Shown here: positions 6,951 to 26,600 of the stretch, in pieces
How the letters are laid out: each line of letters starts with the position of its first letter
Position numbering within the stretch: the stretch's first letter is position 1
Origin: an uncultured Phycisphaerales bacterium
GTDB lineage: Bacteria; Planctomycetota; B15-G4; CAYZWU01
Reading direction: 5' to 3'
DNA: 64,000 nucleotides
NCBI GenBank assembly: GCA_964633825.1
Contig: CAZWHE010000001.1
Span: forward strand, 8,895-72,894
Position numbers and translations under genes: made by a program
Notes under the pieces: generated by a model
What the model saw: the letters and a program-made list of their open reading frames with translations, nothing else
Databases searched by the model: none
What the model was told of the DNA's origin: nothing

Positions 6951-6964
6951 ATAGTGATAAGTAT

Positions 6965-7743: not shown

Positions 7744-7873
7744 GCTTTATTTTATCATGTTTTTTTGGGAAATTCTATGAGAGGTCGAATTCGCTCTTTT
7801 TGTTTATACAATACTAATCAACATAACTCAATATACCATCCGATCAAAGAACGTTTACTGGCTCGAGAAGTAA

Positions 7874-8082
7874 ACCTCAACGATGCAAAAAACATCGAGT
7901 GCAGGCGCGTCAGAGTGCGGCAGATGGGGCAAAAGAGCGATTTTTCTCAGCCGCAGCTATTTATCGATACGTGAGGGTCCGCCCCTTTGGGGCGGTAAAG
8001 AAAAATCGGTATTTTGTCCCAAATGTCATACTATGGCGCGAGGTTCGACGGTCTGAGCCGATGTTTTTTGCATCGTTGAGGT
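7874..8082. repeat. 209-bp inverted-repeat element with 24-bp perfect ends and 50-bp imperfect inner arms
   Basis: ACCTCAACGATGCAAAAAACATCG (7874-7897) is the exact reverse complement of 8059-8082; 7905-7954 vs 7992-8041 match 36/50 by hand alignment. Confidence 0.9.
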
Positions 8083-8086
8083 CAAG

Positions 8087-8965: not shown

Positions 8966-9007
8966 ACCCGGAACAAATCTCCTCCTATCCGCTTTTCAAC
9001 GGCCCGT

Positions 9008-10890: not shown

Positions 10891-11771
10891 CACTTGACGA
10901 CCTCCGTCCCCTTCACCCTTTTGAGAAGGATCACACACGCCAGAGCGTTGATCACGAGCAGGTAGAGAAGGGAAAAGACCCAGTGTAGCTGATAGTTCGT
11001 TTCGACATTCAGGATGATCCGGGCGAGATAACCCACCGACTCGCGCAGATCGATCAGCCTGAGCTCGATCAGACCGAACACCTTGGACAGAATGGCCGAG
11101 GCGATAAGGAGCGTCACGTGAAAGCCGATCCAGAGCACGGCCGCCCTCCGCCCCGTCGAGCAGAGCGAAGAGGCGGCGAGCACAACGAGGGAGGCCGTCA
11201 ACGTGATGATCAACGAGACGCCGATCATGCCCAACAGGAGAGCGGCCTCGGCAGCGAAAGTTTCGCCCTCGTCGGAGAGGAGATAATCGGACAGAAAAAG
11301 AAGCAGCCCCGGAAAGAGCGTCAGGCAGAAGAGGAAGAACGCCATGGCCGCGAACTTGCCGGTCAGGTAGTCGAGAAGCGTGATCGGCTTGGAGAAGTAG
11401 ATCTCGAGCGCGCCGGTCTTGAGATCCCGCGCGACCAGGCCGGTTCCGACGAAAAGACAGAGGAGGACGATGCCGACGAACTGGTTCAGTATGAGAAAGT
11501 TATAGTAGAAAAGCCCGTCAACGGTCGCCAAGGCGGCCAGCCCATCCGCCGCACCTCGCGGCGCACTCTTCGATAATTCGGGGACGAGGTTGTAAGCATA
11601 GATCATGCCGATCCGGACCACGAAGGGGATCATGGTCAGGCAGAAAAGAATCAAGAACTTCTTCGTCTTGAAGGACTGCCTGATCTCGTTCAGCATGATG
11701 GGGACCCAGCGGAATACTCTCCCTTCCAGGTATCCTTCCCAGTGCTTGTAGGACTGGTCGTATATGGGCAC
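10890..11771 (-). CDS. ABC-2 type permease
   Basis: GTG start at 11771 directly after the ATPase stop (MPIYDQSYKHWEG); ARDLKTGALEIYFSKPIT motif; multiple TM segments. Confidence 0.82.
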   Translation of the reverse strand: MPIYDQSYKHWEGYLEGRVFRWVPIMLNEIRQSFKTKKFLILFCLTMIPFVVRIGMIYAYNLVPELSKSAPRGAADGLAALATVDGLFYYNFLILNQFVGIVLLCLFVGTGLVARDLKTGALEIYFSKPITLLDYLTGKFAAMAFFLFCLTLFPGLLLFLSDYLLSDEGETFAAEAALLLGMIGVSLIITLTASLVVLAASSLCSTGRRAAVLWIGFHVTLLIASAILSKVFGLIELRLIDLRESVGYLARIILNVETNYQLHWVFSLLYLLVINALACVILLKRVKGTEVVK

Positions 11772-11772
11772 T

Positions 11773-12723
11773 TCAGTCCTCCACCGACCTGATAAAGAGA
11801 TCTTCGAGCGATTCTTCGGCAGGAACGAGGGAACGGAGCTGCAGCCCTTCCTCGCGCGCCATTCTGAAGATCTCGACGGTCCGGGCTTCTTTCGGAACGA
11901 AGAGCTTGCCTGCGGGACGGACCTTCTCGAAGGTAAATCGCCATCCCGCCTTGTCCGCGGCAAGGCGGAACCTGTCCCGGTCTCCCCTCACCTCCACGTC
12001 GTACACCCTCTCGGCCGACACCTTCAGCTCCGAGATCCTGCCCGCCCGGAGAACCTCTCCGTCTTTCAGAAGGACCACGTGTTCGCACGTTCTCTCCACA
12101 TCGTTCAGGAGGTGGGAAGAGAGGAGGAGGTGGATGTCCTTCCTGTGAGAGAGGTCGTAGATGAGATCGAGGACTTCCTCGCGCCCTTTCGGATCGAAGC
12201 CGTTGGTCGGCTCGTCGAGAATGACGACCTCGGGATCGTGGACAATGGCCTGGGCCAGCTTCACGCGCTGACGCATGCCCATCGAGTAGCCGTCCACGGG
12301 GCGGTAGCGCGCCTCGCCGAGGTCGACATACTCGAGAACCTCGTGGGCCCGCCGGCGGGCGTCTTTCCACGGCATCCCGACGAGCCGGCCGCAAAAAGCG
12401 ACGTATTCGAAGCCGTTCATCCCCGGAATGTGGCAGTCGTGCTCGGGTGCGTAGCCCACTTTTTTCCGAATCTCGATCCCGTCCTTCGAGATGTCCCTGC
12501 CCAGGAGCGAGCCCTTCCCGCCGGAGAGCTCCTGGAGACCGAGAAGGGCCTTGATCAGGGTCGATTTCCCCGCACCATTCGGGCCGAGAAGCCCCACGCT
12601 CCCCCCCTCCATCGAGAGGGTCAGGCCTCTCAGCGCCAGGAATGAGCCGTACGACACCTTGAGATCATCGAGACCGATCAATCGGTTCCGCTGGCTCATG
12701 TTCGTTTCCGATTCATGCATCAT
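11773..12723 (-). CDS. ABC transporter ATP-binding protein
   Basis: GPNGAGKS, YSMGMRQR, VILDEP, LSSH. Confidence 0.93.
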   Translation of the reverse strand: MMHESETNMSQRNRLIGLDDLKVSYGSFLALRGLTLSMEGGSVGLLGPNGAGKSTLIKALLGLQELSGGKGSLLGRDISKDGIEIRKKVGYAPEHDCHIPGMNGFEYVAFCGRLVGMPWKDARRRAHEVLEYVDLGEARYRPVDGYSMGMRQRVKLAQAIVHDPEVVILDEPTNGFDPKGREEVLDLIYDLSHRKDIHLLLSSHLLNDVERTCEHVVLLKDGEVLRAGRISELKVSAERVYDVEVRGDRDRFRLAADKAGWRFTFEKVRPAGKLFVPKEARTVEIFRMAREEGLQLRSLVPAEESLEDLFIRSVED

Positions 12724-12932
12724 GTAAAAGGGGTTCTAATATTCCGTTGCGGAATTGTCCAGCCGTTCAGCAGCCGGTGGTGCCGGTCCGTTGCAACGGC
12801 CCTTTTCACAACCATACCAATTATTTAGGAAACTTCTCCCTGGCTCCATGGTTTAATTCTTCGCAAAGGGAAAACATATGTTTATAGAACAACACGATTC
12901 CGGACAGCAGCTTATACGCAAGCCGAAACCGG

Positions 12933-12972
12933 TTTGGAAAAATCCCTTTGGAAAAATCCGTCTGGAGAAACC
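12933..12972. repeat. Three tandem 14-bp-period repeats in a divergent intergenic region
   Basis: TTTGGAAAAATCCC / TTTGGAAAAATCCG / TCTGGAGAAACC. Confidence 0.7.
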
Positions 12973-13008
12973 TGAACAGGCCAAACCTTTTTTATCGAGG
13001 ACAGAACC

Positions 13009-14025
13009 ATGATCCTGGAAAATTGCGCTCTCTTCCTCTGCCTTCTCATTGCCTCCCCCGGCGACGAGCCGGTCCCACAGACGGCTTCTGACAAAGCTGC
13101 GGCACGCAACGCTTTCATGGAAGCCTGGTTCGTGGAAACGCATGACAAGAAGGCCGAGGAGTCTCTTATCCTCTATAACAAAATCAGAGAGCTCTACCCG
13201 TCGAGCTCCTTTGCTCCGGAAGCCCTGGCCAGAACGATCGGACTGGAGGTCCGGCTTGGCAAGAAGGAAGCAGCCGCGCTTCATCTCGAAGAACTGGAGG
13301 CAAAACATCCTGATTGTACAGACCTTATCAGGAAGGCGCGCTGGAACCTGGAGAGAGAGCAGCGTCGAAGCAAGCGGCCCTCCCGACGGTTTCCTCCAAA
13401 AAAGCCGGAATCCGAGCAAAGCGGGATCGGGACCGAACCCGATGCCTCCGAATTCCCGCTCGTCGAAGGAAAAGGCCAACATCCCGGCAGAACCGGCGAA
13501 CCGAGCGGTGGGAATCAACCGAGGATGCGGAGGCCATCGGGAATCGACTTCTCTCTCATCGACCGCCTTCTCGACGAAGCCCGCAAGAGGGAGAAAGAGG
13601 GAGACATAAGAGGCGCCGAATTGCTGCGCGACAGGGCCGTTGATCTGATTTTGGAACAGAAGTCCGGCAGAGGTCAGCGCGCCGGATCCATCCCCCCGAA
13701 AAGAGAAAGGCTGCAGCGCGAAGCGAAAAGAATCGAAAAGAGAATCAAGGAACTGGAGGCCGAGGGGAAGCACGCAGAAGCCGAAGAGCTTCGCGCAGAG
13801 GTTGAAATCATCCGCCGGAACCTGAAATCCCTCAAAAGAAACAAGAAAACCGACAAGGATCTCAAAAGGCTCTTCCCTCCCGAAGATAATGAGAAGAAGG
13901 ACGATATCGAAATCCTCAGGAGAAAGATCGAAGCGTTGAAAAGGGAGCTCGACGAGAAGCCCGCCGAGGAAAAAACTCCTCCTCCCGAGGAGGCCGGGCC
14001 GGTAACGACCGACGACTCGGGGTGA
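13009..14025 (+). CDS. Predicted secreted protein with TPR-like helical pair and charged coiled coil
   Basis: N-terminal hydrophobic signal; YNKIRELYPSSSFAPEAL TPR-like pattern; long E/K/R heptads. Confidence 0.65.
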   Translation: MILENCALFLCLLIASPGDEPVPQTASDKAAARNAFMEAWFVETHDKKAEESLILYNKIRELYPSSSFAPEALARTIGLEVRLGKKEAAALHLEELEAKHPDCTDLIRKARWNLEREQRRSKRPSRRFPPKKPESEQSGIGTEPDASEFPLVEGKGQHPGRTGEPSGGNQPRMRRPSGIDFSLIDRLLDEARKREKEGDIRGAELLRDRAVDLILEQKSGRGQRAGSIPPKRERLQREAKRIEKRIKELEAEGKHAEAEELRAEVEIIRRNLKSLKRNKKTDKDLKRLFPPEDNEKKDDIEILRRKIEALKRELDEKPAEEKTPPPEEAGPVTTDDSG

Positions 14026-14062
14026 GAGACCGACGAATGAGACCCCGTCGGGGTCCACCCTC

Positions 14063-14605
14063 TCAGAGCTCTTCATATCGGATACCGCGGCCGCAGGCCG
14101 GTTCGATATCGCGTAAAAGCCCGTTCAGGGGGCCGTCATCCCCGGTCGTTTCGAGAAAGGAGCTCGCTTCTTTCCTTTCAGCCGCTGTTTTCAGGATCTC
14201 CCGGCGCGCTTCGAGTCTGACACGCTTCGTTTTCAGCCGCTCCAGACAGGCACGCGACGAAGCCCTTTCTCTCCTCACTTCAACGAGCTCTTTTCTGAGC
14301 TCCGCTTCACAGGCGCGGCTTATTCTCTCGATATTCAGATCGGTATATCCGGCAGAGGAGCCTGTTTTCTTTATTTCGCCGATTACTTCGTCGAGCCTCT
14401 GAAACAGGATTTTTTCCGTCCGATCCAGTCTCTGCAGAACGGACTGGACTTTAGCGATCCGCAGGTTGATCTCATTGATGCCGCTTCGCGCGGGCTCTTC
14501 TTCTTTCCGTTTTTCATTCGAACCCTCATACCCGGGAATCTCGAGCCCATCCCAGGTCACAACGAAGAGAAAGAGAGCGGCGCAGATTATGGTCGATATT
14601 TTCAT
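14063..14605 (-). CDS. Coiled-coil hairpin protein with N-terminal signal or anchor
   Basis: Start moved to ATG 14605 (MKISTIICAALFLFVV); two long amphipathic helices separated by a G/S loop. Confidence 0.6.
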   Translation of the reverse strand: MKISTIICAALFLFVVTWDGLEIPGYEGSNEKRKEEEPARSGINEINLRIAKVQSVLQRLDRTEKILFQRLDEVIGEIKKTGSSAGYTDLNIERISRACEAELRKELVEVRRERASSRACLERLKTKRVRLEARREILKTAAERKEASSFLETTGDDGPLNGLLRDIEPACGRGIRYEEL

Positions 14606-14660
14606 GTCATCCGCCTCCGGACGGAGCCGGCCGGGAGAAGCGCTCCCGGCCGGCCGTCTC

Positions 14661-15494
14661 CTAAAGATTACCTTTTTCGATCTCCTCGAAGCAGGCCTCG
14701 ATATCGGCGACCACGTCTCTGTCGGACGAGACTCCCGGTTTCGAGTAGTCGATGCCGCCCACATAGTCGCCGTTGATGCGAATCCTCTCTTCGAGAATCC
14801 GATCCTTCATATCGAGCTGCTTCTCGAAATCGGCCAACATCTTCTGGGTCTTGCCGATCTCGGTCTTGAATTCATGCGCCAGATCGACGGCGTTCACCGT
14901 TTCGGCGAAGATCTCCTTTGCCTTGTACTTCTCGAGCTCGGCCTTCAAAAACATCACCTTGGCCGTGAGCTCGACTTTCACGTTTTCGGCGTTGGTCACA
15001 TTCTCGCGGGCCATCTCGAGGGTGCCCTTCTTGGTTCTCAAAGTTTCGGCGAGATTCTCCAGGGTCTCGCCCTGGATTCTGAAGATCTTGAGCTTCTCGG
15101 CGGCATCGCGCGACACCTCGCCGTGGGAGTACTCCCGGCCGCCGATCAGGTATGCTTCCTTTCCATCGGCAAGAAGCCGCGACGCGCGCTCCAGCGTCTC
15201 GCGGAGCCTCCCCGAGGCCTCTTCCTTCTCGGCGATGATGCCTTCGAGGTACTCCACATCCACCTGGCGGCGGATCACGTCGGTCTTCAGTTTCTCGATC
15301 TCCCTTTTGAGACCGCTCACCTTGGTTTCGAGGAGAGCCAGCTTGGTTTCGAGCCCCTGGGCTTCCTCGATCTTTTCCTGAATGATGCGCTTGCCCGTCC
15401 CGGCATAGAGCTTGAGCTTCTCGGGATAGACAAGAGCACCCACGACTCCGACAACCACAACGGAAAGAATGAACAGCTTGAATATGGTCTTCAT
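14661..15494 (-). CDS. PspA/IM30 (ESCRT-III)-like coiled-coil protein with N-terminal TM anchor
   Basis: TM segment LFILSVVVVGVVGALVY; long helix ending RASRLLADGKE (compare the PspA hairpin A..AL..G.E); further long helices. The CDS is solid; the family call is inference. Confidence 0.6.
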   Translation of the reverse strand: MKTIFKLFILSVVVVGVVGALVYPEKLKLYAGTGKRIIQEKIEEAQGLETKLALLETKVSGLKREIEKLKTDVIRRQVDVEYLEGIIAEKEEASGRLRETLERASRLLADGKEAYLIGGREYSHGEVSRDAAEKLKIFRIQGETLENLAETLRTKKGTLEMARENVTNAENVKVELTAKVMFLKAELEKYKAKEIFAETVNAVDLAHEFKTEIGKTQKMLADFEKQLDMKDRILEERIRINGDYVGGIDYSKPGVSSDRDVVADIEACFEEIEKGNL

Positions 15495-15544
15495 TTTGAC
15501 CTCCTTTGAATCAAGTCCTTATGAACGTTCCGTTTCATATCCGA

Positions 15545-15982
15545 TCAATCCGCCGCACACGCCGATGGCTGCTCGGCAAAAGCGGCCTGATGATTGTTCT
15601 TATTGTGGGCCGACAGAAAAGCGTCGGCGATACCGATGAAGTATGGAATGACGAGCCAGCTCGTCACGAAGATGAGAACACCCTTGAGAATCTGGTGGTT
15701 GTAAACCTGGCCGGCGCCGGGCAGGACAGTGCTCAAGAGGGCGGCCAGCACGGGATCCTTGTAATCAGGCCGGCCGCAGCAGGGGCATTCGAGCATGCCC
15801 TTCACCGCCGCTTTGATGTGATGAGACGGCCGGCTGGGCCGGGGATTTTCTCCGAAGCGTTTCAGGCAGCACGGGCAAGCGCCGGCCCCCTTCTCGCCGA
15901 GCGAGGGAAGCCTTTCCCCGCAATACCCGCAGTATTTTTCGTCGTCCTGTGCTTCAGACTTTTTCTTTTTGAGCAGAAACAT
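15545..15982 (-). CDS. Small Zn-ribbon membrane protein with KDP..A..LS..PG.GQ.YN motif
   Basis: CGYC, CPCC and CPCC clusters, then KDPVLAALLSTVLPGAGQVYN and TM helices; GGAGG RBS. Confidence 0.75.
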   Translation of the reverse strand: MFLLKKKKSEAQDDEKYCGYCGERLPSLGEKGAGACPCCLKRFGENPRPSRPSHHIKAAVKGMLECPCCGRPDYKDPVLAALLSTVLPGAGQVYNHQILKGVLIFVTSWLVIPYFIGIADAFLSAHNKNNHQAAFAEQPSACAAD

Positions 15983-16544
15983 GATGACCTCCGCAACCCA
16001 TCATAAGCGACAAAGCAAAAGCCGCGGCAAAACCGGTCCAGATCGCCCAGGGCGGGATGACCACACCCATACCGTCGGGCAGCCAGACAAAGAGGAAGGC
16101 GAGCAGGGCGGCGGCGCCCCAGAGCATCCAGTCGCCCTCCCCGACGGTCACCCCCCGCGTCCCTTCATCGAGGCGGTTGTTCTTCTTGATCGCCGCCATG
16201 CGCGCATCCCAGGCGCAGAAGAGGAGGAGAAAGATCAAAACCGGGAGCGGCACGACATCCCTGTTGCCGAAACAGACAAGAGCGCCCGCGAGAAAGAAGA
16301 GCCCCCGAAAAACAGAACCGCAGTAGATCTGTCCCAGACCGGGCATCGCCGAGAGCATGAAAGCCAGGGTGGGCGACTTGAAATTCGCCTTTTTCTTCGG
16401 CTTTTTGAAGGGCTTTCGCCCCGGCACGCAGTCGGGGCAATAGTTTTTCGACTTGTCGAGCCTCCTGCACTCGTGGCAGACGGTCTTGCCGCAGGCCACG
16501 CAGCGCGCCGCGCCCGGTCTTTTCGTGTGTCCGCAGTTCGGCAC
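15954..16544 (-). CDS. B-box-type Zn-finger membrane protein with the same motif
   Basis: CGH..CVACGKTVCHEC..YCPDC; KSPTLAFMLSAMPGLGQIYCG; about four TM helices; GAGG RBS and GTG start. Confidence 0.8.
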   Translation of the reverse strand: MPNCGHTKRPGAARCVACGKTVCHECRRLDKSKNYCPDCVPGRKPFKKPKKKANFKSPTLAFMLSAMPGLGQIYCGSVFRGLFFLAGALVCFGNRDVVPLPVLIFLLLFCAWDARMAAIKKNNRLDEGTRGVTVGEGDWMLWGAAALLAFLFVWLPDGMGVVIPPWAIWTGFAAAFALSLMMGCGGHHVSAQKEKV

Positions 16545-16572
16545 GATACACCTCGCTTTCTTCCACGGGTTA

Positions 16573-16590
16573 TTTCAAAGGGTGTGCCCG
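16573..16590 (-). promoter_or_regulatory. Putative sigma54 (-24/-12) promoter, non-canonical -12
   Basis: CGGGCACACCCTTTGAAA = GG-N10-GA with GGCAC and TTG conserved; implied start about 16563, just upstream of the RBS at 16551-16554. Confidence 0.45.
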
Positions 16591-16787
16591 GAGATGAAAA
16601 AAACGGCGCCCATCAAAAAAACCGAGCGGCCGGATAGGCAAAATCATGCGGCAGGGACGCCTGAGCACCGCGAAGAGCCGGTTTGGAATTTCCGGAACAA
16701 ATAAAAAAAAGCGATCGGGACTCTGGCGGCACTTGGAGGGTGGAATCACATGGAGTCAAGAAAACCGACACGCCGTGTCAAAAGTCT

Positions 16788-18788
16788 TTACGCTTCCGGG
16801 CTCGCTTGTTTGTTGATTTCTTCAGCCCCGGTATGGGCCTGCCGGATTCCATAAAAATAGGGCAGAATGAGCCAAAAGGTGAGCAGAACGAGGATGCCTT
16901 TGCGGGTGTCGCCGTTATAGAACTGCCCCAGCCCGGGCAGCATGGCGGAAAGGACGGCCGCAAACACGGGATCCTTGCGGCGCGGTCCGGGCCGGAGAGA
17001 TTGCCCTTCTTCCTTCTTTTTTCTATGAAAAAGATGATGCAAAGGACCGCGGCCTTTTCCCATGTGCTTCTCTTTGGGTTTTTTCTTGGGCTTTATCTTG
17101 GCCTTTTTCCGTGCGAAATAAAAAGCGCCGGCCGCCATGTCGTGAAGGGTGCGCTTTTCAGGGCTCATGAAGAGGTACCCCACGTCGATAAGCAGCCAGG
17201 CCAGACAGATCGTTCCCAGCGTGGGAACAATTGTCGGCTGGGCCGTCTCGGAGGCCCTGGCAAGACCGTCCAGCGCGCGACAGAAAGCGTTCCCGCCCTG
17301 ATCCCACGACTCGATGAATAAAATCGGAAACTTCGCACCCATTCCGAAAAGGACGGGATAAAAGAGAAGTGTCCTGAAAAAAGCCGCCACCCAGCCAAGG
17401 TCCTCGCCGCTCGCCTTTCCCACGCGGCATCTGAAGAACGTCTTGCCCAGGGTGACTCCCCCCTTCGCATCGGAGATGAAAAAATAGAAAAAAACGAAAA
17501 GGAGAAAGACGGCATCCCACAGCCAGTATCGAAAGACCCCGCTCTCGAGGTTGTACAGAGCGGACAGAACCGCAAAATCCCCCGCCCAGGCAAGGAAGCG
17601 CCTCAAAAGCCCGGCCCGGACGAGCCGGATCTCCTCGGAAGCGGGAGCCTCCCTTTCTTCGATCACATAGCTCGGTATTCTCCTGACACCCTTTGAGCGC
17701 TGCTGATCCTTGCTCTTGTCACGGCCCCGCCCCTGTTCGGAGGAAAGAGCGGGAGCCCGCCCTGTCTTCAAGGATTCGAGGTCGGCAATGAGGGCCTCGT
17801 ATGACGTGTACCTGTCATCCTTCTTCTTGGACATCATCTTCCGGATAACGGCCGAGAGCGCAGCCGGAATCTTCGGATTGCGCGAGTCGGGCGGGGGGAG
17901 GTCATCCCTGATGTGCCTGAGGATGATGCCGACCGGGCTCTCCGCTTCGTAGGGCGGGGATCCCGTCAGGAGGTGGTAAAAGGACGCGCCCAGGGAATAG
18001 ACATCGGTTCTGTAGTCGAGGGGGCGGCTTTCGCCCTGCTCGGGCGACATGTAATAGGGCGTTCCCACGATGGCGCCCGTCAGGGTCAGGCTGCTCTGGC
18101 TCGACGCGATCCGGGCCAAACCGAAATCAGTGATTTTCAGGGTCCCCTTCTTGTCGAGAACCATGTTGGACGGCTTGACGTCCCTGTGAATCACCCCTTG
18201 GGCCGCGGCCGCCGCCAGGCCCCGGGAAGCCTGGATCATGAGGTCGATCGCCCGGTCCGGATCGAGCGGTCCCTCTCTCCTTAAAAGACGGTCGAGGTTC
18301 TCGCCGTCCACCAGCTCCATGGCATAGTAGGGGATCCCTTTCCACGTGTCCGTGTAATAGATCTGGACGATGTGAGGATTGTTCAACCGCGCCACGGAAC
18401 GGGCTTCCCTCTGAAAGCGGGCGACGAAATCTTTCTGTTCCCGCAGCTTTCCCGAGAGGATCTTGAGCGCCACGTTCCGCTGAAGCTTTTGGTCCACGGC
18501 GATGTAGACCTTTCCCATCCCGCCCTCGCCGATTACACCGGTCACGCTGTAGGGCCCCAGGGAAGAACCGATCGCAATGTCGCCGGGCCGGGGGAGTTCG
18601 AGAGTCGTTGTGACACGATCTCCGCCGGGAGAAGGACCACCCTCACGCGACGGGGGGCGGCTCGAATCTCCCGGAGGGAGGACATTGATCCTTTTGCAGG
18701 ACGGACACTCGAACTCGACGCGGTCGTCCCCCGGTTCCTTGACCAGGATCTCGCCGCAGGGACAGATGATTTCGACCGTGTCCTTCAT
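16788..18788 (-). CDS. Hanks-type Ser/Thr kinase with N-terminal Zn ribbon, RDD domain and C-terminal TM motif
   Basis: CPCG..CPSC; GEGGMGKVY, VALK, HRDVKPSN, DFGLAR, GTPYYMSPEQ; RAGLLRRFLAWAGDF..GVTLGK RDD pattern; KDPVFAAVLSAMLPGLGQFYNG. Start set at ATG 18788. Confidence 0.92.
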   Translation of the reverse strand: MKDTVEIICPCGEILVKEPGDDRVEFECPSCKRINVLPPGDSSRPPSREGGPSPGGDRVTTTLELPRPGDIAIGSSLGPYSVTGVIGEGGMGKVYIAVDQKLQRNVALKILSGKLREQKDFVARFQREARSVARLNNPHIVQIYYTDTWKGIPYYAMELVDGENLDRLLRREGPLDPDRAIDLMIQASRGLAAAAAQGVIHRDVKPSNMVLDKKGTLKITDFGLARIASSQSSLTLTGAIVGTPYYMSPEQGESRPLDYRTDVYSLGASFYHLLTGSPPYEAESPVGIILRHIRDDLPPPDSRNPKIPAALSAVIRKMMSKKKDDRYTSYEALIADLESLKTGRAPALSSEQGRGRDKSKDQQRSKGVRRIPSYVIEEREAPASEEIRLVRAGLLRRFLAWAGDFAVLSALYNLESGVFRYWLWDAVFLLFVFFYFFISDAKGGVTLGKTFFRCRVGKASGEDLGWVAAFFRTLLFYPVLFGMGAKFPILFIESWDQGGNAFCRALDGLARASETAQPTIVPTLGTICLAWLLIDVGYLFMSPEKRTLHDMAAGAFYFARKKAKIKPKKKPKEKHMGKGRGPLHHLFHRKKKEEGQSLRPGPRRKDPVFAAVLSAMLPGLGQFYNGDTRKGILVLLTFWLILPYFYGIRQAHTGAEEINKQASPEA

Positions 18789-18807
18789 GCCTCGATTCAA
18801 CGGAACC

Positions 18808-20700
18808 TTACTCCGTCTCCTTGATTCCATACAGCTTGATCTTGTCGTAAAGCGTGGGTCTGCTGATGCCAAGAATACGGGCGGCCTGTTTCTTGTTCCA
18901 CCCCGCATATCGAAGCACACTCACCACATGCGCCCGCTCTACCTCTTTGAGGGTCACTTCCGCATCGGGAGCCGCGGTCTGGGCGTCGCCGGCTCGTCCC
19001 GTCCAGTTTTCGAAAGCGAGAGGCCCCTCATCGGCCAGAATCAGCTCTCGCTCGAGAACATTTCGCAGCTCACGGACGTTTCCCGGCCACCGGTGGGCCC
19101 TGAGACGCTTCATCCCCGCGGGAGAGACCGTTCTTTCCCCATGGGCCAGTTTCTTCAGAAGATGCGAGACGAGCTCGGGTATGTCTTCGGCGTGCTCCCT
19201 GAGGGGCGGGGCTTCGATCTGGAACACGCGGAGACGGTACAAAAGATCTTCGCGGAACTCGCCCTTCGCTGTTTTATCGTCCAGGTCGGTGTTCGTGGCC
19301 GCAATGATTCTTACGTTCACATGGACCGGCGCTTCCCCGCCAACGGGGTAAAAGCTCTTTTCTTCCAGAACCCTGAGGAGCTTCACCTGAATCGGGAGAG
19401 GGAGCTCACCCACCTCGTCGAGAAAGAGCGTCCCCTCGTGGGCCAGCTCGAAGCGCCCGAGCTTCCGGTCGACGGCCCCGGTGAAAGCGCCCTTCTCGTG
19501 ACCGAAAAGCTCGCTCTCCACCATGGATTCGGGGATGGCGCCGCAGTTGATCGATACCATGGGCCTCTCACACCTCCCGGACTGTGAGTGAAGGGACGAG
19601 GCGATCACCTCCTTGCCGGTCCCGCTTTCCCCCACGATCAGGATCGTGGCGTCGGCGGTCGCTGCCTTCCGTACGAGCGTGCGGACATGCTCCATCGCCT
19701 TGGAACGACCCACCAGCTCGGTCGTGCCCGGCACCTTCGACCGCAGGATTTTGTTGTCCCTTTCGAGCCTGTTCCGGTATCCCAAGTTCTCAATAGCCAG
19801 GGCCGCCTGGGACGTGAACGCTGCCAGGACCTGCAGCTTTTCCTTTCCGAAGGACGTTTCCTTTCCGAAGGACGTTTCCTTTCCGGGCACACCGAGGGAA
19901 GAGAGGTAGACTGCGCCGGTGACCCTGCCCGCCGATCTCATGGGCGCGGCCAGGATGCGGGCTGTTCCGGCGGCGGCAATGGACCGCGCCTTGCGCAGCG
20001 CGGGGTCGTTCAAGGGATTCACGGCCACAACGGAAACGTTGCCGCCCATCACCTTGTCGAGCACCGTTCTGGAAGGTCTGTATTCCTCTACGCCGCTTCT
20101 GTTGATCTCACTAAGAATTTTTATATCCTCGCCATCATCGCCGTCCCGCAGGAAGACGCATCCCAGGTCCATTCCAAAGAGATCCATAACAATGGGCAGA
20201 AACTCGTCGAGCATTTTATCCGAGGAATCGGATGTGCCGACCAGTTCGGCCACTCGGAAAAGAGCTTCGATCGGATCTCCGCCGAGACCGGCCCGGCTGA
20301 AGACCCCGGAGTCGGGGACCTTTTCGGCTGCCGCCTTCAGGGCGACCTCAACGGTCGTATCGCCGAATACTTCCGTCTTTTTCCCTGCAGTCGATTGCAT
20401 AGGCTCCCTGTCATAGAGCAGGAGCGAGGCTTGTCCTACAACGATTATGTCTCCGGGCTTCGCAACGGCTTCGGTGACCTTGCTTCCGTTGAGATAGGTC
20501 CCGTTCGTGGAGCCGAGGTCCTTCAGGACGGCTCCACCCTTTCGGGGCTTCAGCTCGCAGTGCTCGCGTGACACACCATCGTCGTCCAGAACAACATGGC
20601 AAGAGGCGGAGCGGCCTACGCGGAGAACGCCCGTCAAGTGGTAAACCTTTTCGATGCTCCCGCGGCCTTTATAAAGTAGGAACAGGTTCTCTTTCGCCAT
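18808..20700 (-). CDS. Sigma54-dependent activator, FHA-GAF-AAA+-HTH
   Basis: FHA VGRS..VSREH..STNGTYLNG; GAF LAAPMRSAGRVTGAVYL; GESGTGKE, GAFTGA, FLDEVGE, WPGNVREL; Fis-type HTH. Start set at ATG 20700. Confidence 0.95.
   Translation of the reverse strand: MAKENLFLLYKGRGSIEKVYHLTGVLRVGRSASCHVVLDDDGVSREHCELKPRKGGAVLKDLGSTNGTYLNGSKVTEAVAKPGDIIVVGQASLLLYDREPMQSTAGKKTEVFGDTTVEVALKAAAEKVPDSGVFSRAGLGGDPIEALFRVAELVGTSDSSDKMLDEFLPIVMDLFGMDLGCVFLRDGDDGEDIKILSEINRSGVEEYRPSRTVLDKVMGGNVSVVAVNPLNDPALRKARSIAAAGTARILAAPMRSAGRVTGAVYLSSLGVPGKETSFGKETSFGKEKLQVLAAFTSQAALAIENLGYRNRLERDNKILRSKVPGTTELVGRSKAMEHVRTLVRKAATADATILIVGESGTGKEVIASSLHSQSGRCERPMVSINCGAIPESMVESELFGHEKGAFTGAVDRKLGRFELAHEGTLFLDEVGELPLPIQVKLLRVLEEKSFYPVGGEAPVHVNVRIIAATNTDLDDKTAKGEFREDLLYRLRVFQIEAPPLREHAEDIPELVSHLLKKLAHGERTVSPAGMKRLRAHRWPGNVRELRNVLERELILADEGPLAFENWTGRAGDAQTAAPDAEVTLKEVERAHVVSVLRYAGWNKKQAARILGISRPTLYDKIKLYGIKETE
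19841..19885. repeat. In-frame 18-bp tandem duplication (GKETSF x2.5) in the GAF domain
   Basis: TCCTTTCCGAAGGACGTT repeated. Confidence 0.9.
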
Positions 20701-20728
20701 GAATTCTGAAAACTCCTGTCTCTCTGTC

Positions 20729-20764
20729 AGAAGACGATTTCTTCTCCTAGAAGACGATTTCTTC
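20729..20764. repeat. Two palindromic 16-mers at 20-bp period upstream of the activator
   Basis: AGAAGACGATTTCTTC at 20729-20744 and 20749-20764. Confidence 0.8.
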
Positions 20765-23536
20765 CGTCCGGCAATCAAAGAAATCGTAACGGTAAAAGCG
20801 TTCTCTGCTCAAACCGGGAACAATGGACCGTTTCGATGAAAACCCCCCGGCCGGCATTATCCGAGAGTAATAGAGAAACCTCCGGTCATCCACGAGACCG
20901 AGCACTTTCAAGGGACAGGTTCCGGCCCAGACGACTTGTTCCGATTCGTCATCGTACCTGCGGAACAACAGGCGTGTCCCTTCCCTGTCGATAATCAGGA
21001 ACCCCTTGTCGTGATAAAAGGGAAAAAGCCCGGCCGCGTTTCCATCGTAGAGAACACAGGTCTTGTGGGCAACCGGGTCGACGAGGATGATTCTGAGCAC
21101 TCCCGTGGCATCGCTGACCGCCTTTCGCAGCGGGACCGTCTCCCAGACGATGACATCGCCCTGCGCCCTGTCGAGGCAATAGCGGATCTCCTTCCCTTCG
21201 GCGGCATAGCACGACTCCACCCGCGCCGTGGAATCACGGTACAAGAAGAGCTCCGTTCTTTTGCCTCTGCTGCCGACGAAAAAGATCCCGTCATCACATC
21301 CTTTGATATCGGTGAGCTCCACACCGTGCACGGGTATGACGTATGCCACCTTTTCCTCGGTCGAATAGAGAGCGACCCTCTCCCTGGAGCCGGGAGGCAT
21401 CACCGCCCTGACGAGGCCCCTTCCTTCGATGAACTCGAGCCTGTGAAAGATGCGGTTGAGAAAGGAGCGTTCCCTTTTTTCATCAAGGTCTTTGAGCCGG
21501 TGCTGCCAGAACGAGCCCCTCCACTCATTGATCAGGAGCTTGTCCCCCGAGGGCGAGGGGGAGAGGAGCACGTCACTTCCCAGAAATTTGATCCTCTTCC
21601 GATCCGCTTCCACGAGATACCAGCTCGACCCGAAACCTGTTTTTTCCTCCCCCGTTTCTTTGCGTCCCGTCCGGACAAGGAGCCTGTTCTCATTTAGCCA
21701 GACCAGATCGGAGACAAGTGAATCGAAATAAAATGTCCGTTTCCGGCGAAACCCGGAATCGGTCACAACGAGCGGGAAATCTCCCCTCTTCACATCACGT
21801 TCGAGAGCGGCCGCCAGCCAGTTGTTCAATGGAGAAGGAATGACGAGACGAGGCCGGATTTTGATGTAGCCCGTGTTGTTGGAGCGATCCACGTCGGGCC
21901 ATTCGTAGTCCGGGTCGATGACAACACCGACAACCCCCTCTTCCGACAGCGTTTTCTTCCAGACCGCCCGTCCCGATGAGAGCGTCACCTGGTTCGGAAT
22001 TATTTTATTGTCGGTCACAACATCGATGCCGACCTTTCCCCGGAAGTCGAGATCCCCCTGGTTTTCGATAACGACCCTGATCCGGCAGTCTTTCTTCAGA
22101 GGCTGAACGGAAAGATCAGCTACGACCAGATCGAGATCGAGACGGTTCCGGGCCCAGTCCCGGAAAAGCCAGTCGAGCCCTTCCACACCCCGCTCCTTGC
22201 AGCACCGCGACCAGAGATCTTCATTGTCGCTCCCGGGAGGGGCCCGGAGAATCTCGAGGCAAACCTCTTCGAAGGTGTCGTTCCCCACCAACCGCCGTAC
22301 GACATCGAGAAGGAACCCCCCGAATTCAACTCCTTTATCTTCCCTCCCGCTCCTTTCGCGGCCCGACACGGACAAACTCTGCCGCGGCAGGCAGGATCCC
22401 CCGGGAGAAAAGAGATCGACCCTTTTGAAAGCACAGATCCCGTCCTCCCCGCGACTCCGCCCTTGGGAAACGAAGCGGATGGCCCACCCCATAGCAATCT
22501 CTTCCCTCGAAAAGAGGCTGTTTTCCAGCGGCTTCGATCCCGCCTGCAGTTTCGGAGCCATCCAGAGGAGGCCGAAGGCGAAGGCCTGCTCATCGATCGA
22601 CAGGCTGCGGGGAACAAGAAGGGTTCCGGCGCCGTCACAGCGCAGACCGCCCGCGAAGCTTTCCGGCATGAGAATGAAATTCATCGACTCGGGGCGGACC
22701 GCGGGGAGGGATCTCTCGAAAAAACCGTACAAGACTTCGAGGTTTTCCATGAGCCCCGGCGGGCCTGCGCCGAGAGGACAGAGCGCGACCGGTATCTCTC
22801 CGACAGTCATCCTGATCGGGGCGGTTCGACATCCCGCAACCGCGAAAGCCTGAACAGGCCGGGCGAGAGACCACTCGAAACAAGTCCGGCCGGTTCCATG
22901 GGGGAACCGGTCCGGATCAGCGGGCTTGGCCGAGCTCGCCGGCGCCACGGGCATGAATCCCGAAGGAAAGGTGACCCTGAGATCCACATCCATTGCACCG
23001 TTCGAGACCCGCGGATAGTACGCGTCATCGGGATCGAGGTAGATGAGATCATGGGTTATCACGCTCTTCGAGCCCGAAATCCTGAAATCACCGCTGTAGT
23101 CGATTTCGAGAACCCCCGCTTTTTCCGAGCTCACCTCGTCGGGAAAGCCCACCCGGTAGAAAGGGCCTATCCTGCCGAATCCGAGATTCCGCCCCTCCCA
23201 TCTCACTCCGATCACTTTAAGGGCCGGATTCAATCCAAAAAAGAAACCGATCCATCCGGGATCGACGGTCATGTCGATCCTGGCGCTGCCCCTTATCCCG
23301 GCTGTTCCGGTCGCTTCTGCCGTAACGGTATCCAGATCGAGCTGAAGGTCCATTTTGCGGGGGGTCTGGTTCCCGAAGAAAAGGCCCAAGCGGCTGTCTA
23401 AAAACCGGATCGCCGCAGGCGTCCTTTCAAACAGAACAGTGATGCCGAACAGGATAAAGATCAATGCCAGGACAGCGGCCAGCGAAACCGCCATTGCCGG
23501 CTTTCCTCTGAAAAAGCGCCTGAATGATCCGGACAT
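20747..23536 (-). CDS. Membrane-anchored M1-aminopeptidase-like protein lacking HEXXH, with CARDB-like Ig domain and beta-propeller-like C-terminus
   Basis: M1-type beta domain (IYLDPDDAYYP, MDVDLRVTFPSG), VVIDPDYEWPDVDRSNN; no HEXXH anywhere in the translation. Confidence 0.6.
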   Translation of the reverse strand: MSGSFRRFFRGKPAMAVSLAAVLALIFILFGITVLFERTPAAIRFLDSRLGLFFGNQTPRKMDLQLDLDTVTAEATGTAGIRGSARIDMTVDPGWIGFFFGLNPALKVIGVRWEGRNLGFGRIGPFYRVGFPDEVSSEKAGVLEIDYSGDFRISGSKSVITHDLIYLDPDDAYYPRVSNGAMDVDLRVTFPSGFMPVAPASSAKPADPDRFPHGTGRTCFEWSLARPVQAFAVAGCRTAPIRMTVGEIPVALCPLGAGPPGLMENLEVLYGFFERSLPAVRPESMNFILMPESFAGGLRCDGAGTLLVPRSLSIDEQAFAFGLLWMAPKLQAGSKPLENSLFSREEIAMGWAIRFVSQGRSRGEDGICAFKRVDLFSPGGSCLPRQSLSVSGRERSGREDKGVEFGGFLLDVVRRLVGNDTFEEVCLEILRAPPGSDNEDLWSRCCKERGVEGLDWLFRDWARNRLDLDLVVADLSVQPLKKDCRIRVVIENQGDLDFRGKVGIDVVTDNKIIPNQVTLSSGRAVWKKTLSEEGVVGVVIDPDYEWPDVDRSNNTGYIKIRPRLVIPSPLNNWLAAALERDVKRGDFPLVVTDSGFRRKRTFYFDSLVSDLVWLNENRLLVRTGRKETGEEKTGFGSSWYLVEADRKRIKFLGSDVLLSPSPSGDKLLINEWRGSFWQHRLKDLDEKRERSFLNRIFHRLEFIEGRGLVRAVMPPGSRERVALYSTEEKVAYVIPVHGVELTDIKGCDDGIFFVGSRGKRTELFLYRDSTARVESCYAAEGKEIRYCLDRAQGDVIVWETVPLRKAVSDATGVLRIILVDPVAHKTCVLYDGNAAGLFPFYHDKGFLIIDREGTRLLFRRYDDESEQVVWAGTCPLKVLGLVDDRRFLYYSRIMPAGGFSSKRSIVPGLSRERFYRYDFFDCRTEEIVF

Positions 23537-23650
23537 GCCCTCGATGATTCACTCTCCTTTTGGCAGAAACATTGATGCAATGTTTCAATCTATCTTAGCC
23601 TCAAAGCGCTGATGATTTCGAGCAGAAACGATCGGGAGGGCGCCGCCCGG

Positions 23651-26600
23651 TCAAGCGGGCCGCAACGGATCAATCCCCGAGGCCGCTCCGTGGAGACGGA
23701 GGGTTTCCTTTTCCAGCTTTGTTCCGCGCCTCGTTTCTCCCAAAATCCGGATCGACATCCGAGTGATGGCCAGCGCGCTTCTCGCTTTCCCCATTTCAAG
23801 AAAAACCGTGGCCAGCGCGTTGAGAGAGTAGACCTGCTCCCGGTTCGCCAGAGAAGCGCTGCGCGTTTCAGCGACGGCCCGACGGGATTCCTTCAGAGCC
23901 CGCTCTATATTTCTTGACCCCGCACCGGGTCGGCACATAAGGCGGGCCCGCGTGGCCAGCGTCCTTGCGATGAGACGCTTGTCTGCGCCGTCTTCGGCAA
24001 GGTGAAACGCTTCATCGAGAATGTCCGCGGCCTCTTCGAAATTCTTTTTTTCCAGAAGACATTCACCCAAATCGGTGAGGGATCGGGCCCTCAAAAAGAA
24101 ACGCCCCAGCCTGTGCGCGATCTCGGCGGCGCGGCGGAGAGCTTTTTCGGCAAAATCCTGCTTTCCCGATTCCAGGTGGAGCTTGCCGACTCCGATCAGC
24201 ACTTCGGCGATCCCTTCGTCGTTCCGGGCCTTTCTGAAAATAGAAAGGGATTCGCGAAAAGCCTCCCGGGCAAGGCTCCTTTCACCGCGTTCCAGGTGGA
24301 TCAATCCCATGCTCGTGAGGATCCGGGCCTGACCGATTCTGTCTCCGAGATTCCGCCTGAGCTCCCGCGCTTCCTCGAGATGCTTCACCGAGTCCGCGTT
24401 CTCGCCGATATCAGCCAGAATACCGGCAAGGGTCTGGTGCGCATCCGCCTCTCCGGTCATGTCACGGGCTCGCCGCATGCCGTTCAGGGCCGCCTCCACA
24501 CAGTGGAGAGCGCTGACAAAACGAGACACGGCATAGTAGTGCTGTCCCATTCTGAGCGACACGAGGGATCTCAGCCTTTGATTGCCGGCTGCGGCGAAAG
24601 CCCTGCGCAGAGCCCGGAACTCGACGTCTCTCTTCCCCAGGTAAGCGGCTATTCTGGCCTCCCGGAGATTGATCCGGCATTCGAGCCCCCTGTCGAAATC
24701 CTGTCCGGCCTCCCTGAGCACGGCCACATGGTTGACGGCATTCTTGGCCAGGGCCAGAGCGCTTTCGTGGGCATTCCTGAAGAGCAGGTAGTCCTGGGCT
24801 TGGAAAAAATACCTGAGAGCTCCGGCGTGATTCCCGGCCCTGGAAAAGTGGACGGCCGTTTTAAGAATCTCTCTCCCCGTAAGAGAGCGCGTTGTCGACA
24901 TTTTTTCGAAATAGAGTCCGGCCCGCTCGTGGCAGGCCCTGCGCTCCTCGTCTCCGAGAGAGTCGAGGATCATTTCCCGGATCAGAACGTGGTCGAAACG
25001 ATGCCTTTTTCCCACAGTCGGCCTGATGAGCGAAGAGCGGCTCTCGAGTTTCGAAACAATGCCGACCGCGTCGGCCAGGTCCATCCCGAGCGCGCCGACA
25101 ACGTCCTCAACACGAAAGCGCACCCCGAACACAGAGGCCTGTTCGAGGAAGCGCCGCTCTTCAACGGCGAGCCTGAAGAGCCTCCTGTAAAAAACATCCT
25201 GAATCGTTGCCGGAACGTAGCGGAGGAGCTCGAGCCAGTCGGGGTTCTCGTCGTTCAAGACGCCTTTGTCGAGAAGGAGCCGGGCAACCTCGAGCACGAA
25301 GTAGGGATTTCCCTCGGTGACCCCGAAGACGCGGCTCCCCACTCTGTCCTTGACAACGGGAGCGGGGAAACCCAATTCCTCGAGCATGCCCTTGACGTCT
25401 TTTTCATCGAGGCGCGACAGCCTGAAAAAACGGGTTCCCTTCTCCCGGTCGAGCTCTTCGAGGAATCCCACCAGATCGCTCTCCTCTCCGGAGAGAGGCT
25501 CACCCGAACGGGCCGTCAGGATCATCATCACCCGCATTCCGCCGATGTGCCGGGCAATCTCGAGAAGAACGTCCCGTGCGGGCTTTCCCATGCCCTGGAT
25601 ATTCTCGACAACGAGAATGAGAAGCTTCTTTTTCGACAGGAGGGTGAAGAATTCCTTGAAGAGCTGGGCCGCTGTTTCCGGCGAAGGGACACCCGCTTTC
25701 GGTCCGGACGAGGTTGCGACGAGAAAATCGGCGAATGCATCGGCGGTTTGCGGGCGGTCAAGAAACAGATCAGCGAGCTTTTCTCGAAGGCGGCTCTGAA
25801 GAAGATCTCTATCCGGCTCCTTGAGATCGAGAGCCGCCAGCACCGCTGAAATGAGAGCCGAATAGGGAACCCTCACCTCGCTCTGGATTCCCTGGACCAT
25901 AACGAGGTCCCCCTCCTGCTGATCCATGTCCATTCTTTCGAGCAGCCTGTCAAGGAGGCGCGTCTTCCCCACGCCGGCCTCCCCTTCGATCACGGCGACG
26001 CGCCCCCCCTTCCCGCCCCTCGCTTCGCCGATGAGTTTTTCAAGGCCCGCGATTTCCCTCTCCCGGCCGTAAAAAGAGGTTTTTCTCGAAATATGAAGAG
26101 CGGCCCTTCTCCTGTCCACGAACTCGGGAAAAATCTCGGACCGGACACTCCTCCACCACGGATCGGCTTCGCCCCCTTCGAGAATCCGCCTCAGGCGGGC
26201 CCCGGGACCGAGGCGTTTCTTTGGATCCTTCTCCAACAGGGCCATGATGAGAGCGCTCATGAAGGGCGATACGAGGACGCCCAATGACGCCGGCGGTTCG
26301 GGCGTGAGGCCGATGTGGTTCGAAATCGTAGAAATCAGGTCTGATCCGAGAAAGGGGTTTTCGCCCACAGCCAATTCGTAGAGGACGACTCCCAGCGAGT
26401 AGAGGTCGGACGTTGTTCCGACCCGCGCCGGACCGAACCGCTCCGGAGCCGCATAGGCCACGGTTCCATAAAACCCGCTGTCAATGGATTCGCCCGTACG
26501 CCAGATCTTCCTGGAGAAACCGAAATCCCCTATCTTGACCACACCCTTTTTCTCGAGGAATATGTTCTCGGGCTTGAGGTCGCGATGAATGATGCCGCGT

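Follow-up and report, generated by a model that had tools for sequence, protein, structure and literature searches.

Gene content and conservation of the locus

The 64,000-nucleotide (nt) stretch analysed here, positions 8,895 to 72,894 of contig CAZWHE010000001.1 from an uncultured Phycisphaerales bacterium and hereafter called the window, carries six consecutive co-oriented genes on its minus strand between positions 14063 and 20700. According to the open reading frame (ORF) calls their order is act-kin-zn1-zn2-cc1-cc2 (Table 1), and they encode a sigma54 enhancer-binding protein with a forkhead-associated (FHA) domain, a membrane Hanks-type Ser/Thr kinase, two membrane proteins with Cys motifs and two coiled-coil proteins. 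A first-pass annotation, made from the letters of the window, had listed these genes with their motifs as a candidate envelope-stress system; all six ORFs exist. A regulatory logic that runs from the kinase to the FHA activator and from there to a sigma54 operon is strongly supported by sequence and comparison, and the six genes are likely to be a self-contained signalling-and-response module specific to Phycisphaerae.

Table 1. Features of the module and its control region. Positions are those of the window; amino acid (aa) positions are those of the respective protein.
Feature	Position	Strand	Basis or description
Activator (sigma54 enhancer-binding protein)	18808..20700	-	630 aa; Pfam and orthologue alignment
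Activator, FHA domain	aa 27-89, nt 20434-20622	-	Pfam E 1e-19, 71 bits
Activator, linker with invariant Thr, GDTTVEV	aa 113-119, nt 20344-20364	-	Orthologue alignment
Activator, GAF domain (GAF_2/GAF)	aa 159-304	-	Pfam
Activator, AAA+ sigma54-interaction domain, GAFTGA	aa 404-409, nt 19474-19491	-	Sigma54_activat E 5e-69
Activator, HTH_8	aa 583-623	-	E 3e-13
Membrane Hanks-type Ser/Thr kinase	16788..18788	-	666 aa; Pfam, motifs, orthologue alignment
Kinase, N-terminal Cys4 ribbon, CxC...CxxC	nt 18696-18764	-	Motif
Kinase, N-terminal linker with invariant Thr	nt 18594-18623	-	Alignment
Kinase, kinase domain	nt 17790-18551	-	Pkinase E 1e-49, 169 bits (cutoff 31.7)
Kinase, RDD multi-TM (transmembrane) domain	aa 392-554, nt 17127-17615	-	PF06271 E 9e-15, 55.7 bits (cutoff 24.1)
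Kinase, C-terminal TM2/DUF5683-like hairpin	nt 16851-16979	-	DUF5683 23.0 bits, below cutoff of 26.7
Candidate enhancer (upstream activating sequence), GACA-N5-TGTCGG-N4-CTTGAC	16755..16779	-	17-bp TGT-N11-AC(T) dyad, about 180 bp upstream of -24
T8AT tract between dyad and promoter	16701..16710	-	Similar T-rich tracts in L006, L010
Sigma54-type -24/-12 promoter, GGGCAC-ACCCT-TTGAA	16574..16589	-	44 nt upstream of zn1 GTG start
zn1	15954..16544	-	196 aa; eight N-terminal Cys/His ligands, several TM segments
zn1, TM2/DUF5683-like hairpin	nt 16275-16376	-	DUF5683 15.3 bits, below cutoff of 26.7
zn2	15545..15982	-	145 aa; two Cys knuckles and TM2/DUF5683 hairpin
zn2, hairpin	nt 15608-15760	-	DUF5683 (PF18935) 28.4 bits, above cutoff of 26.7
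cc1	14661..15494	-	277 aa; N-terminal hydrophobic helix, then coiled coil
cc1, long helical hairpin	aa 24-109 and 124-201	-	Model
cc1, beta-hairpin tip, Y..IGGR.YS	nt 15105-15152	-	Conserved (alignment)
cc1, shorter helices	aa 213-240 and 261-275	-	AlphaFold model
cc1, invariant GGIDY	nt 14745-14759	-	Near C-terminus; Phycisphaerae members
Intercistronic GC-rich stem-loop, 13 bp, no T-run	14625..14656	-	Minimum free energy -38.6 kcal/mol, z -3.9
cc2	14063..14605	-	180 aa, real start ATG 14605; N-terminal hydrophobic helix, then coiled coil
Terminator-like hairpin and T-run	13976..13993	-	About 70 nt after cc2 stop

A locus scan restricted to one genome per species gave 11 related loci (given below as L followed by a number), all of them from Phycisphaerales, Phycisphaeraceae or Planctomycetota. 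By tblastn, act, kin, zn1, zn2 and cc1 lie in the same order in every locus of sufficient length, and the activator gene is next to the kinase gene in each of the loci. Proteins of the most distant clade share 35-45% identity with those of the window, and the flanking genes are wholly different; even so, cc1 is followed in that clade by a short gene for an N-anchored coiled-coil protein. Within the window's own clade the module keeps a stable, syntenic place in the chromosome, flanked by housekeeping genes. A neighbourhood that dissolved in related genomes was among the outcomes that the first-pass annotation had named as fatal to its proposal, and the gene order is instead kept in Phycisphaerae as a conserved unit. 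The protein cc1 has 21 close relatives, and these belong to Planctomycetota wherever they are named. A second sigma54 activator, of 536 aa and without a recognisable input domain, is encoded in the distant clade (L003-L005, 2342-3952), two small ORFs away from the FHA activator and upstream of it.

The activator and the kinase

The activator has the two parts that define bacterial enhancer-binding proteins, namely a GAFTGA-bearing AAA+ sigma54-interaction domain (Walker A motif GESGTGKE), with AAA_lid_14 also recognised by Pfam, and a DNA-binding HTH. Its FHA residues are intact, as had been read from the window, and the alignment extends this observation, since all 10 orthologues have GR, SRxH and STNG unchanged. 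The GAF domain was absent from the earlier annotation. Among NCBIfam models the best match is NifA (TIGR01817), which covers GAF, AAA+ and HTH with 364.8 bits; this is below the cutoff of 528.85, and the protein is therefore not a member of the NifA equivalog. The linker between FHA and GAF contains an invariant Thr that always has V or I at the +3 position, and V or I at +3 of a Thr is the classic preference of FHA domains.

The kinase gene is better started at ATG 18788 (MKDTV...) than at GTG 18920, as judged from the orthologue alignment, and this start lies 19 nt past the activator stop. The motifs VALK, HRDVKPSN, DFG, SLTLTG and SPE are all present and conserved in 11 orthologues, which makes the protein a Hanks-type kinase with the intact catalytic motifs and SLTLTG activation loop that had been noticed at first reading. 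There is no obvious or sizeable extracytoplasmic domain, and the sensor part consists of the RDD domain and a C-terminal hairpin, the latter missing from the first-pass annotation. The same architecture, hairpin included, is seen by alignment in the distant clade at 35% identity. RDD domains are reported to have a conserved intramembrane site that faces the cytoplasm (PMC12419801). The N-terminal zinc ribbon of the kinase has no significant similarity to the ribbons of zn1 and zn2.

A look-alike of the activator's Thr motif, likewise built around an invariant Thr, is found in the N-terminal linker of the kinase. The two motifs differ between clades in a matched way: GDTT in the activator accompanies G(D/K)TT in the kinase, GATT accompanies (G/S)ATV, and GAET accompanies (G/A)ETV/A. 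Because both change together by clade, one recognition system for the two proteins is suggested, and the two linkers are candidate shared phospho-acceptor or FHA-ligand sites. With intact phosphothreonine (pThr)-binding residues in the FHA domain and a kinase gene next to it, the locus has the components expected of FHA-kinase signalling. The earlier proposal that the FHA domain reads a phospho-signal of the Hanks kinase fits the constant adjacency of the two genes.

The control region of zn1-zn2-cc1-cc2

The only sizeable internal gap of the gene set is 16545-16787, between kin and zn1, and a -24/-12-like site had been proposed there. Counting motifs was dropped as promoter evidence, since consensus-like sigma54 matches in the window number 141 against 179 expected, and only conservation was allowed to count. 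An element of the form GG[CT]A[CT]-N5-[TG][TC]G lies 44-69 nt upstream of the zn1 start in 11 of 11 non-redundant loci, and the rest of the gap sequence cannot be aligned between clades. In dinucleotide shuffles the chance of such an element at promoter distance is 0.3-1.4% per locus; the product of these chances is about 1e-24 and is still very small if only about five independent lineages are counted. The proposed site is thus conserved in both position and sequence. The canonical GG-N10-GC form occurs in 4 of the 11 loci, and the window itself has GA instead of the canonical GC as its -12 dinucleotide. Among the promoters of the window, L001, L006, L007, L009, L010, L003, L014 and L017, replacement of the -12 C, a base nearly universal in sigma54 promoters, by A or T (TTGA, TTGT, TCGA, GTGA) is seen in the window's clade and one other, and is either a lineage-specific relaxation or the mark of a tuned weak promoter.

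Upstream of this element lies a dyad that may be the enhancer. The dyad is unique in the window, where no further copies that would indicate a larger regulon were found, and each 20-kb locus of the relatives has a single copy of the strict pattern. Dyads of related loci are placed 110-300 nt upstream of the promoter and are clade-specific in sequence, all of them being of the TGT-N11-ACA type: the window's clade has GACA-N5-TGTCGG-N4-CTTGACA, and other clades have two tandem copies of TGTTCGG-N3-CCGAACA or GTTCGCG-A-CGCGAAC. The dyad sequence varies between clades together with the activator. In the Phycisphaeraceae locus L011 an insert of 3.6 kb (5413-8998) separates the kinase gene from zn1, with both the sigma54 promoter and the dyad staying with zn1; the dyad precedes zn1 by 189 nt there instead of following the kinase stop, and so it goes with the promoter, as expected of an enhancer. 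The T8AT tract between dyad and promoter is a possible intrinsic bend or site of the integration host factor (IHF) type.

The layout of the region is the textbook sigma54 arrangement, with a conserved promoter element and upstream dyads marking zn1-zn2-cc1-cc2 as the predicted target of the activator. Dependence of these four genes on sigma54 and on the activator is well supported by this comparison.

zn1, zn2 and the shared membrane hairpin

The Cys/His ligands of zn1 form the pattern CxH-x8-CxxC-x4-CHxC-x9-CxxC, which fits two zinc sites, and every locus has a conserved copy of the protein, with 39-52% identity. The name B-box that it had been given is a label at the level of the pattern, since Pfam returned no zf-B_box match at E<=0.1 and only a weak DZR hit (E 0.0056). 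The genes zn1 and zn2 overlap by 29 nt, an overlap also present in L001 and L003, which suggests translational coupling.

Both proteins share a part with the kinase. The C-terminal hairpin of the kinase (KDPVFAAVLSAMLPGLGQFYNG...) is 42% identical to zn2 over 89 aa (BLAST E 4e-20), and BLAST also relates the kinase C-terminus to zn1 (E 3e-6). Of the PF18935/PF05154 matches, that of zn2 exceeds the DUF5683 cutoff, and those of the kinase C-terminus and zn1 remain below it (Table 1). On sequence similarity, the sensor kinase and two products of the operon that it would induce share a paralogous membrane module, and zn2 looks like the kinase minus its kinase and RDD parts. By analogy with the action of LiaF on LiaS or of PspBC, zn1 and zn2 are plausible membrane partners of the kinase that act back on it.

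The coiled-coil proteins

The family of cc1 is large. The protein matched no Pfam or other curated family at threshold, and PspA_IM30 (PF04012) did not appear at E<=0.1. A profile search collected 522 representative proteins of very uniform length that are widespread in Planctomycetota. Among 84 family members PspA_IM30 was seen below threshold in five (best E 0.002, 18 bits against a cutoff of 33.9), fewer than Snapin, DUF641 or SlyX in the same 84. The family profiles A1 and A2, compared with all PDB sequences, retrieved no PspA or Vipp1 at E<=10, and hhalign gave A2 a probability of 3.4% against E. coli PspA and one of 7% against a 10-sequence enterobacterial PspA alignment. The E. coli query was validated against 4WHE; the template alignment is of low diversity, all entries among the best 120 matches listed being enterobacterial with at least 86% identity, which limits the power of this comparison.

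Structure prediction gave a partly different picture. Two AlphaFold models of cc1 reached a predicted local distance difference test (pLDDT) score of 71 and 81, the second being made from the 84-sequence alignment with a predicted template modelling score (pTM) of 0.60. In the second model, helices 2-22, 24-45 and 48-109 are followed by the beta-hairpin tip 114-123 and helices 124-201, 213-240 and 261-275, an order that resembles alpha0-alpha5 of PspA. Foldseek ranks 1-9 for this model are all Vipp1/PspA chains, aligned over nearly the full length with target-normalised TM-scores of 0.50-0.62. Their E-values run from 1.1e-3 to 1.4e-2, none reaching 1e-3, with V-ATPase stalk and SMC hairpins next at E 0.017, and the Vipp1/PspA ranking appears only in this better model with the deeper alignment. 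The hairpin of cc1 is longer than that of PspA, and the beta-hairpin tip, with its conserved pattern Y..G..Y[ST]...V..D, has no PspA counterpart.

The N-terminus of cc1 begins with MKTIFK followed by 17 uniformly hydrophobic residues; over the 84 family members the n-region has 1.85 Lys/Arg and no acidic residues, the core has a mean Kyte-Doolittle value of 2.19, and UniRef names one relative 'Signal peptide-containing protein'. Such a sequence looks like a Sec signal or an N-in anchor and unlike an amphipathic helix, and it would put the coiled coil on the outer side of the cytoplasmic membrane, in contrast to PspA. The first-pass annotation had labelled this protein PspA/ESCRT-III-like. The Pfam, PDB-profile and hhalign comparisons speak against that label and the Foldseek ranking speaks for it at marginal E-values, so that true membership of cc1 in the PspA/ESCRT-III superfamily appears doubtful.

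The second coiled-coil protein, cc2, is poorly conserved, with 30-34% identity in the window's clade, and the gene at its position in L003 is only weakly similar (E 2e-4). It matched no Pfam family at threshold. Paralogy with cc1 was considered and rejected (hhalign probability 0.3%); with no relationship detected between the two proteins, the 'effector pair' of the earlier annotation is a pair by position only. Between the two genes lies a GC-rich stem-loop that may set the dosage of cc1 above that of cc2 or protect the 3' end of the cc1 message. Stem-loops of 10-17 bp are found at the same place in L001, L003, L006, L007, L010, L011, L014 and L016, the last labelled P. mikurensis, with equal strength, unrelated sequences and usually no T-run. 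The hairpin with T-run after cc2 is likely the end of the operon.

The wider cc1 family

More distant members of the cc1 family were sampled at four other planctomycete-type loci. Two of these, L018 from Bremerella cremea of the Planctomycetia (8001-13378) and L019 (8001-14304), have a cc1-like gene followed by genes for a stand-alone FHA protein and a membrane Hanks kinase; the other two, L020 and L021, have a cc1-like gene without adjacent FHA or kinase genes. The kinase of L018 and L019 has a large multi-TM C-terminus, and genes for unknown proteins and, a little further, an extracytoplasmic function (ECF) sigma factor follow it. This arrangement looks like a second, sigma54-free association of cc1, FHA and kinase genes, and because of it the link between the coiled-coil family and FHA/kinase genes would predate the Phycisphaerae module, in which the FHA domain appears to have become fused to a sigma54 activator.

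Surroundings of the module

The module is set among chromosomal housekeeping genes, which include those for IF-2, NusA, EF-G and ThiG. A gene for a 929-aa protein with an N-terminal membrane helix and no family match ends 46 nt before the activator gene, and upstream of it is encoded a 1119-aa kinase-AAA_16-TPR protein (both minus strand, region 20747-27010). These two genes and the ABC-2 transporter genes downstream of the module are conserved in the window's clade only, and for this reason they were rejected as parts of its core. On the plus strand, convergent to cc2, an ORF of 338 aa (13009-14025) encodes a protein with a lipoprotein-like N-terminus, weak TPR similarity of the YbgF/BamD type and a long tail rich in Lys, Glu and Arg; it occupies about 1.1 kb that is absent in related loci, where the ABC transporter directly follows cc2. 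A scan of 13500-21000 with Rfam gave no match.

Proposed mechanism and alternatives

Domain content, gene order, promoter with dyad and hairpin paralogy are direct results of the sequence comparison. The explanation that we judge most probable, and to which we give somewhat better than even confidence, combines them into a module with its output at the envelope. The cue is probably one that arises in or at the cytoplasmic membrane and that the membrane kinase senses with its RDD domain and hairpin, and the adjacent activator would read the kinase output through the FHA domain, which may dock to a pThr of the kinase, to the activator's own phosphorylated linker Thr, or to both. The effect of such binding would be to release or favour AAA+ ring assembly; the activator would occupy dyads of the TGT-N11-ACA type about 110-300 bp upstream of the -24/-12 promoter, and sigma54-RNA polymerase would then transcribe zn1-zn2-cc1-cc2. 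Feedback would come from the products zn1 and zn2, associated with the kinase in the membrane, and cc1, together with cc2 at a lower dosage behind the intercistronic hairpin, would be the structural output at the envelope, as membrane-anchored or exported coiled coils. The phosphorylation partners, the positive sign given here to the regulation and the feedback are those that we infer.

A hydrophobic segment, N-terminal or in a hairpin, is present in each of the four products. With membrane proteins as outputs, a sensor embedded in the membrane and a promoter of the inducible sigma54 kind, the locus is read most economically as responding to a cue from membrane or envelope, and the operon may serve envelope homeostasis. 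The terms envelope stress and membrane remodelling, both proposed in the first-pass annotation, are used here as putative only.

Several observations weigh against this explanation. The window's promoter motif on its own is not above chance, and the -12 element of its clade (TTGA, TTGT, TCGA) lacks the canonical C. The window's dyad also forms a hairpin with a T-run and could terminate transcription of the kinase gene; that post-kinase dyads are mere terminators was rejected, on the grounds that most orthologous dyads have no T-run, that identical palindromes are repeated in tandem and that the dyad of L011 lies where it does. No phosphatase gene was seen near the module. The real signal may come in through the GAF domain, the kinase being no more than a neighbour, and if cc1 and cc2 are periplasmic they cannot be direct targets of the kinase or the FHA domain.

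Three other accounts use some of the same evidence. One would make cc1, with cc2, a divergent remodelling or repair protein of the PspA/Vipp1/ESCRT-III kind and the locus a Psp-like envelope-stress response, in which kinase and FHA domain replace the control of PspF by PspB/C. It draws on the deeper-alignment model of cc1 (N-helix, long hairpin, extension and two short helices), on its near full-length matches to Vipp1/PspA at Foldseek ranks 1-9, on an operon behind a sigma54 promoter as in psp, and on archaeal ESCRT-III loci linked to FHA proteins and Ser/Thr kinases (PMC10936438). This account is unlikely, if worth keeping in view: generic V-ATPase stalk and SMC hairpins stand close behind hits of which none reaches 1e-3, PspA_IM30 is absent from cc1 and only sub-threshold in a few relatives, neither the PDB profile search nor hhalign favours PspA, and no PspB or PspC family model matched at E<=0.1. 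The uniformly hydrophobic, signal-like N-terminus with its KK n-region is not the amphipathic alpha-0 of PspA, and the longer hairpin and beta-hairpin tip are also foreign to PspA. A bolder version, which we regard as speculative, has cc1 as founder of a planctomycete-wide, highly diverged PspA/Vipp1/ESCRT-III branch of at least 500 representative clusters, with a signal or anchor helix, perhaps on the periplasmic face, coupled to FHA/kinase signalling and completed in Phycisphaerae by a circuit with the zn1/zn2 feedback pair. If true, it would link phospho-signalling to membrane shaping in bacteria with elaborate invaginations and FtsZ-less division.

The same wiring could have another physiological role, namely the control of normal envelope morphogenesis or division, comparable to actinobacterial FhaA/FhaB with PknA/PknB and with the coiled coils as scaffolds of division or invagination. 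The chromosomal housekeeping context suits such a role, as do the size and spread of the cc1 family and its link to FHA/kinase genes in two classes, and the Foldseek and PDB-profile neighbours include coiled coils that are partners in cell-wall remodelling (EnvC, PcsB, RipA). To our knowledge Planctomycetota lack FtsZ, and we know of no account of the division machinery of Phycisphaerae, which also counts in favour of this role. The EnvC, PcsB and RipA matches are, however, generic coiled-coil similarity, the cassette contains no divisome or peptidoglycan gene, and a sigma54 promoter of the inducible kind, served by its own sensor, points to conditional and not constitutive expression; the role is a serious rival of rather low probability. 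An anti-phage or abortive-infection system, with the sensor kinase triggering small membrane-collapsing proteins, is highly improbable. Small TM-hairpin proteins are common as abortive effectors, and in PADLOC the kinase domain matches the PD-T4-6 and MADS6 kinase models and the AAA+ part matches the RtcR type. These hits are generic, which is why defence is rated so low; the four output proteins match neither PADLOC nor PHROGs, and the module has a stable syntenic position in the window's clade instead of lying in a variable island.

Comparison with known systems

The classical Psp response of Enterobacteria (PspF-PspABC) has in common with the locus a sigma54 promoter with a dedicated activator, a small operon and membrane-associated proteins; moreover, the largest product here is a long helical hairpin whose best, if marginal, PDB fold matches are Vipp1 and PspA. 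The control differs, as PspF has no input domain and is held by PspA, whereas the activator described here has FHA and GAF domains and is accompanied by a Hanks kinase. There is no PspB or PspC match at E<=0.1, zn1 and zn2 included, and cc1 fails the PspA sequence tests and has a signal-like N-terminus. The locus therefore lacks both the input-less PspF and the PspB/PspC that define the classical system. Of two Psp surveys, one mentions no FHA, RDD, TM2 or sigma54 in any context (PMC11237479) and the other contains no FHA and no Planctomycetes (PMC9239133), in keeping with the earlier statement that the architecture is not a described Psp variant. The LiaFSR/LiaIH system of Firmicutes is similar in combining a sensor kinase with small membrane proteins, possible modulators of it, and with a helical protein that is induced and associates with the membrane. 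It is built on a histidine kinase and response regulator, whereas a Hanks kinase, an FHA domain and sigma54 are used here, and none of the LiaF, LiaI or Toastrack-type families was reported at E<=0.1.

The activator itself has precedents. Jelsbak, Givskov and Kaiser reportedly described FHA-containing sigma54 enhancer-binding proteins of Myxococcus xanthus in 2005. In these, as in the activator of the window, FHA replaces the receiver domain of an NtrC-type activator and implies input from a Ser/Thr kinase; they differ in that a GAF domain is inserted here, that the presumed cognate kinase, promoter, enhancer and target operon are found in one conserved locus, that the lineage is Phycisphaerae and that the targets are unrelated. 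The 2005 study is cited in PMC12288465, and FHA-bearing sigma54 activators have been on record since the Myxococcus genome. NifA is similar in its GAF-AAA+-HTH order and its TGT-N10-ACA site, as reflected in the best NCBIfam match and the TGT-N11-ACA dyads; it differs in that the match lies below cutoff, an N-terminal FHA is added, the dyad spacing is 11 and not 10, and nif genes are absent.

Pairs of a kinase and an FHA regulator are known from Mycobacterium, where EmbR with PknH and GarA with PknB/PknG, cited in PMC6213207, are FHA proteins under adjacent or cognate Hanks kinases. The Thr with a hydrophobic residue at +3 near the FHA domain recalls the self-binding switch of the GarA type. 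The output here is nevertheless a sigma54 AAA+ activator and not an OmpR-like or metabolic regulator, and the kinase senses through RDD and a TM2-like hairpin instead of PASTA or another extracellular domain. Archaeal ESCRT-III/Vps4 loci with FHA proteins, kinases and phosphatases (PMC10936438) resemble the window, L018 and L019 in linking a helical-hairpin gene to FHA and kinase genes. The loci of this study are bacterial, the window has predicted sigma54 control and no Vps4 or CdvA, and the membership of cc1 is putative; if cc1 is ESCRT-III-like, the association of FHA and kinase genes with ESCRT-III would be extended from archaea to bacteria.

Literature on combinations of FHA domains, enhancer-binding proteins and Hanks kinases yielded only the Myxococcus precedent and general reviews, and the literature searched contained no described case with kinase, FHA activator, enhancer, promoter and target operon in one conserved locus. 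FHA-containing sigma54 activators, kinase-FHA regulator pairs and sigma54-controlled membrane operons are each known; their combination in one locus, the shared hairpin and the target family are new. The module offers a minimal, portable test bed for the switching of a sigma54 AAA+ activator by a Hanks kinase, and it gives a first regulatory context to three little-understood membrane modules, namely RDD, the TM2/DUF5683 hairpin and a planctomycete coiled-coil family of about 500 representative clusters. It also suggests a principle of feedback in which a sensor and its own products share a membrane hairpin.

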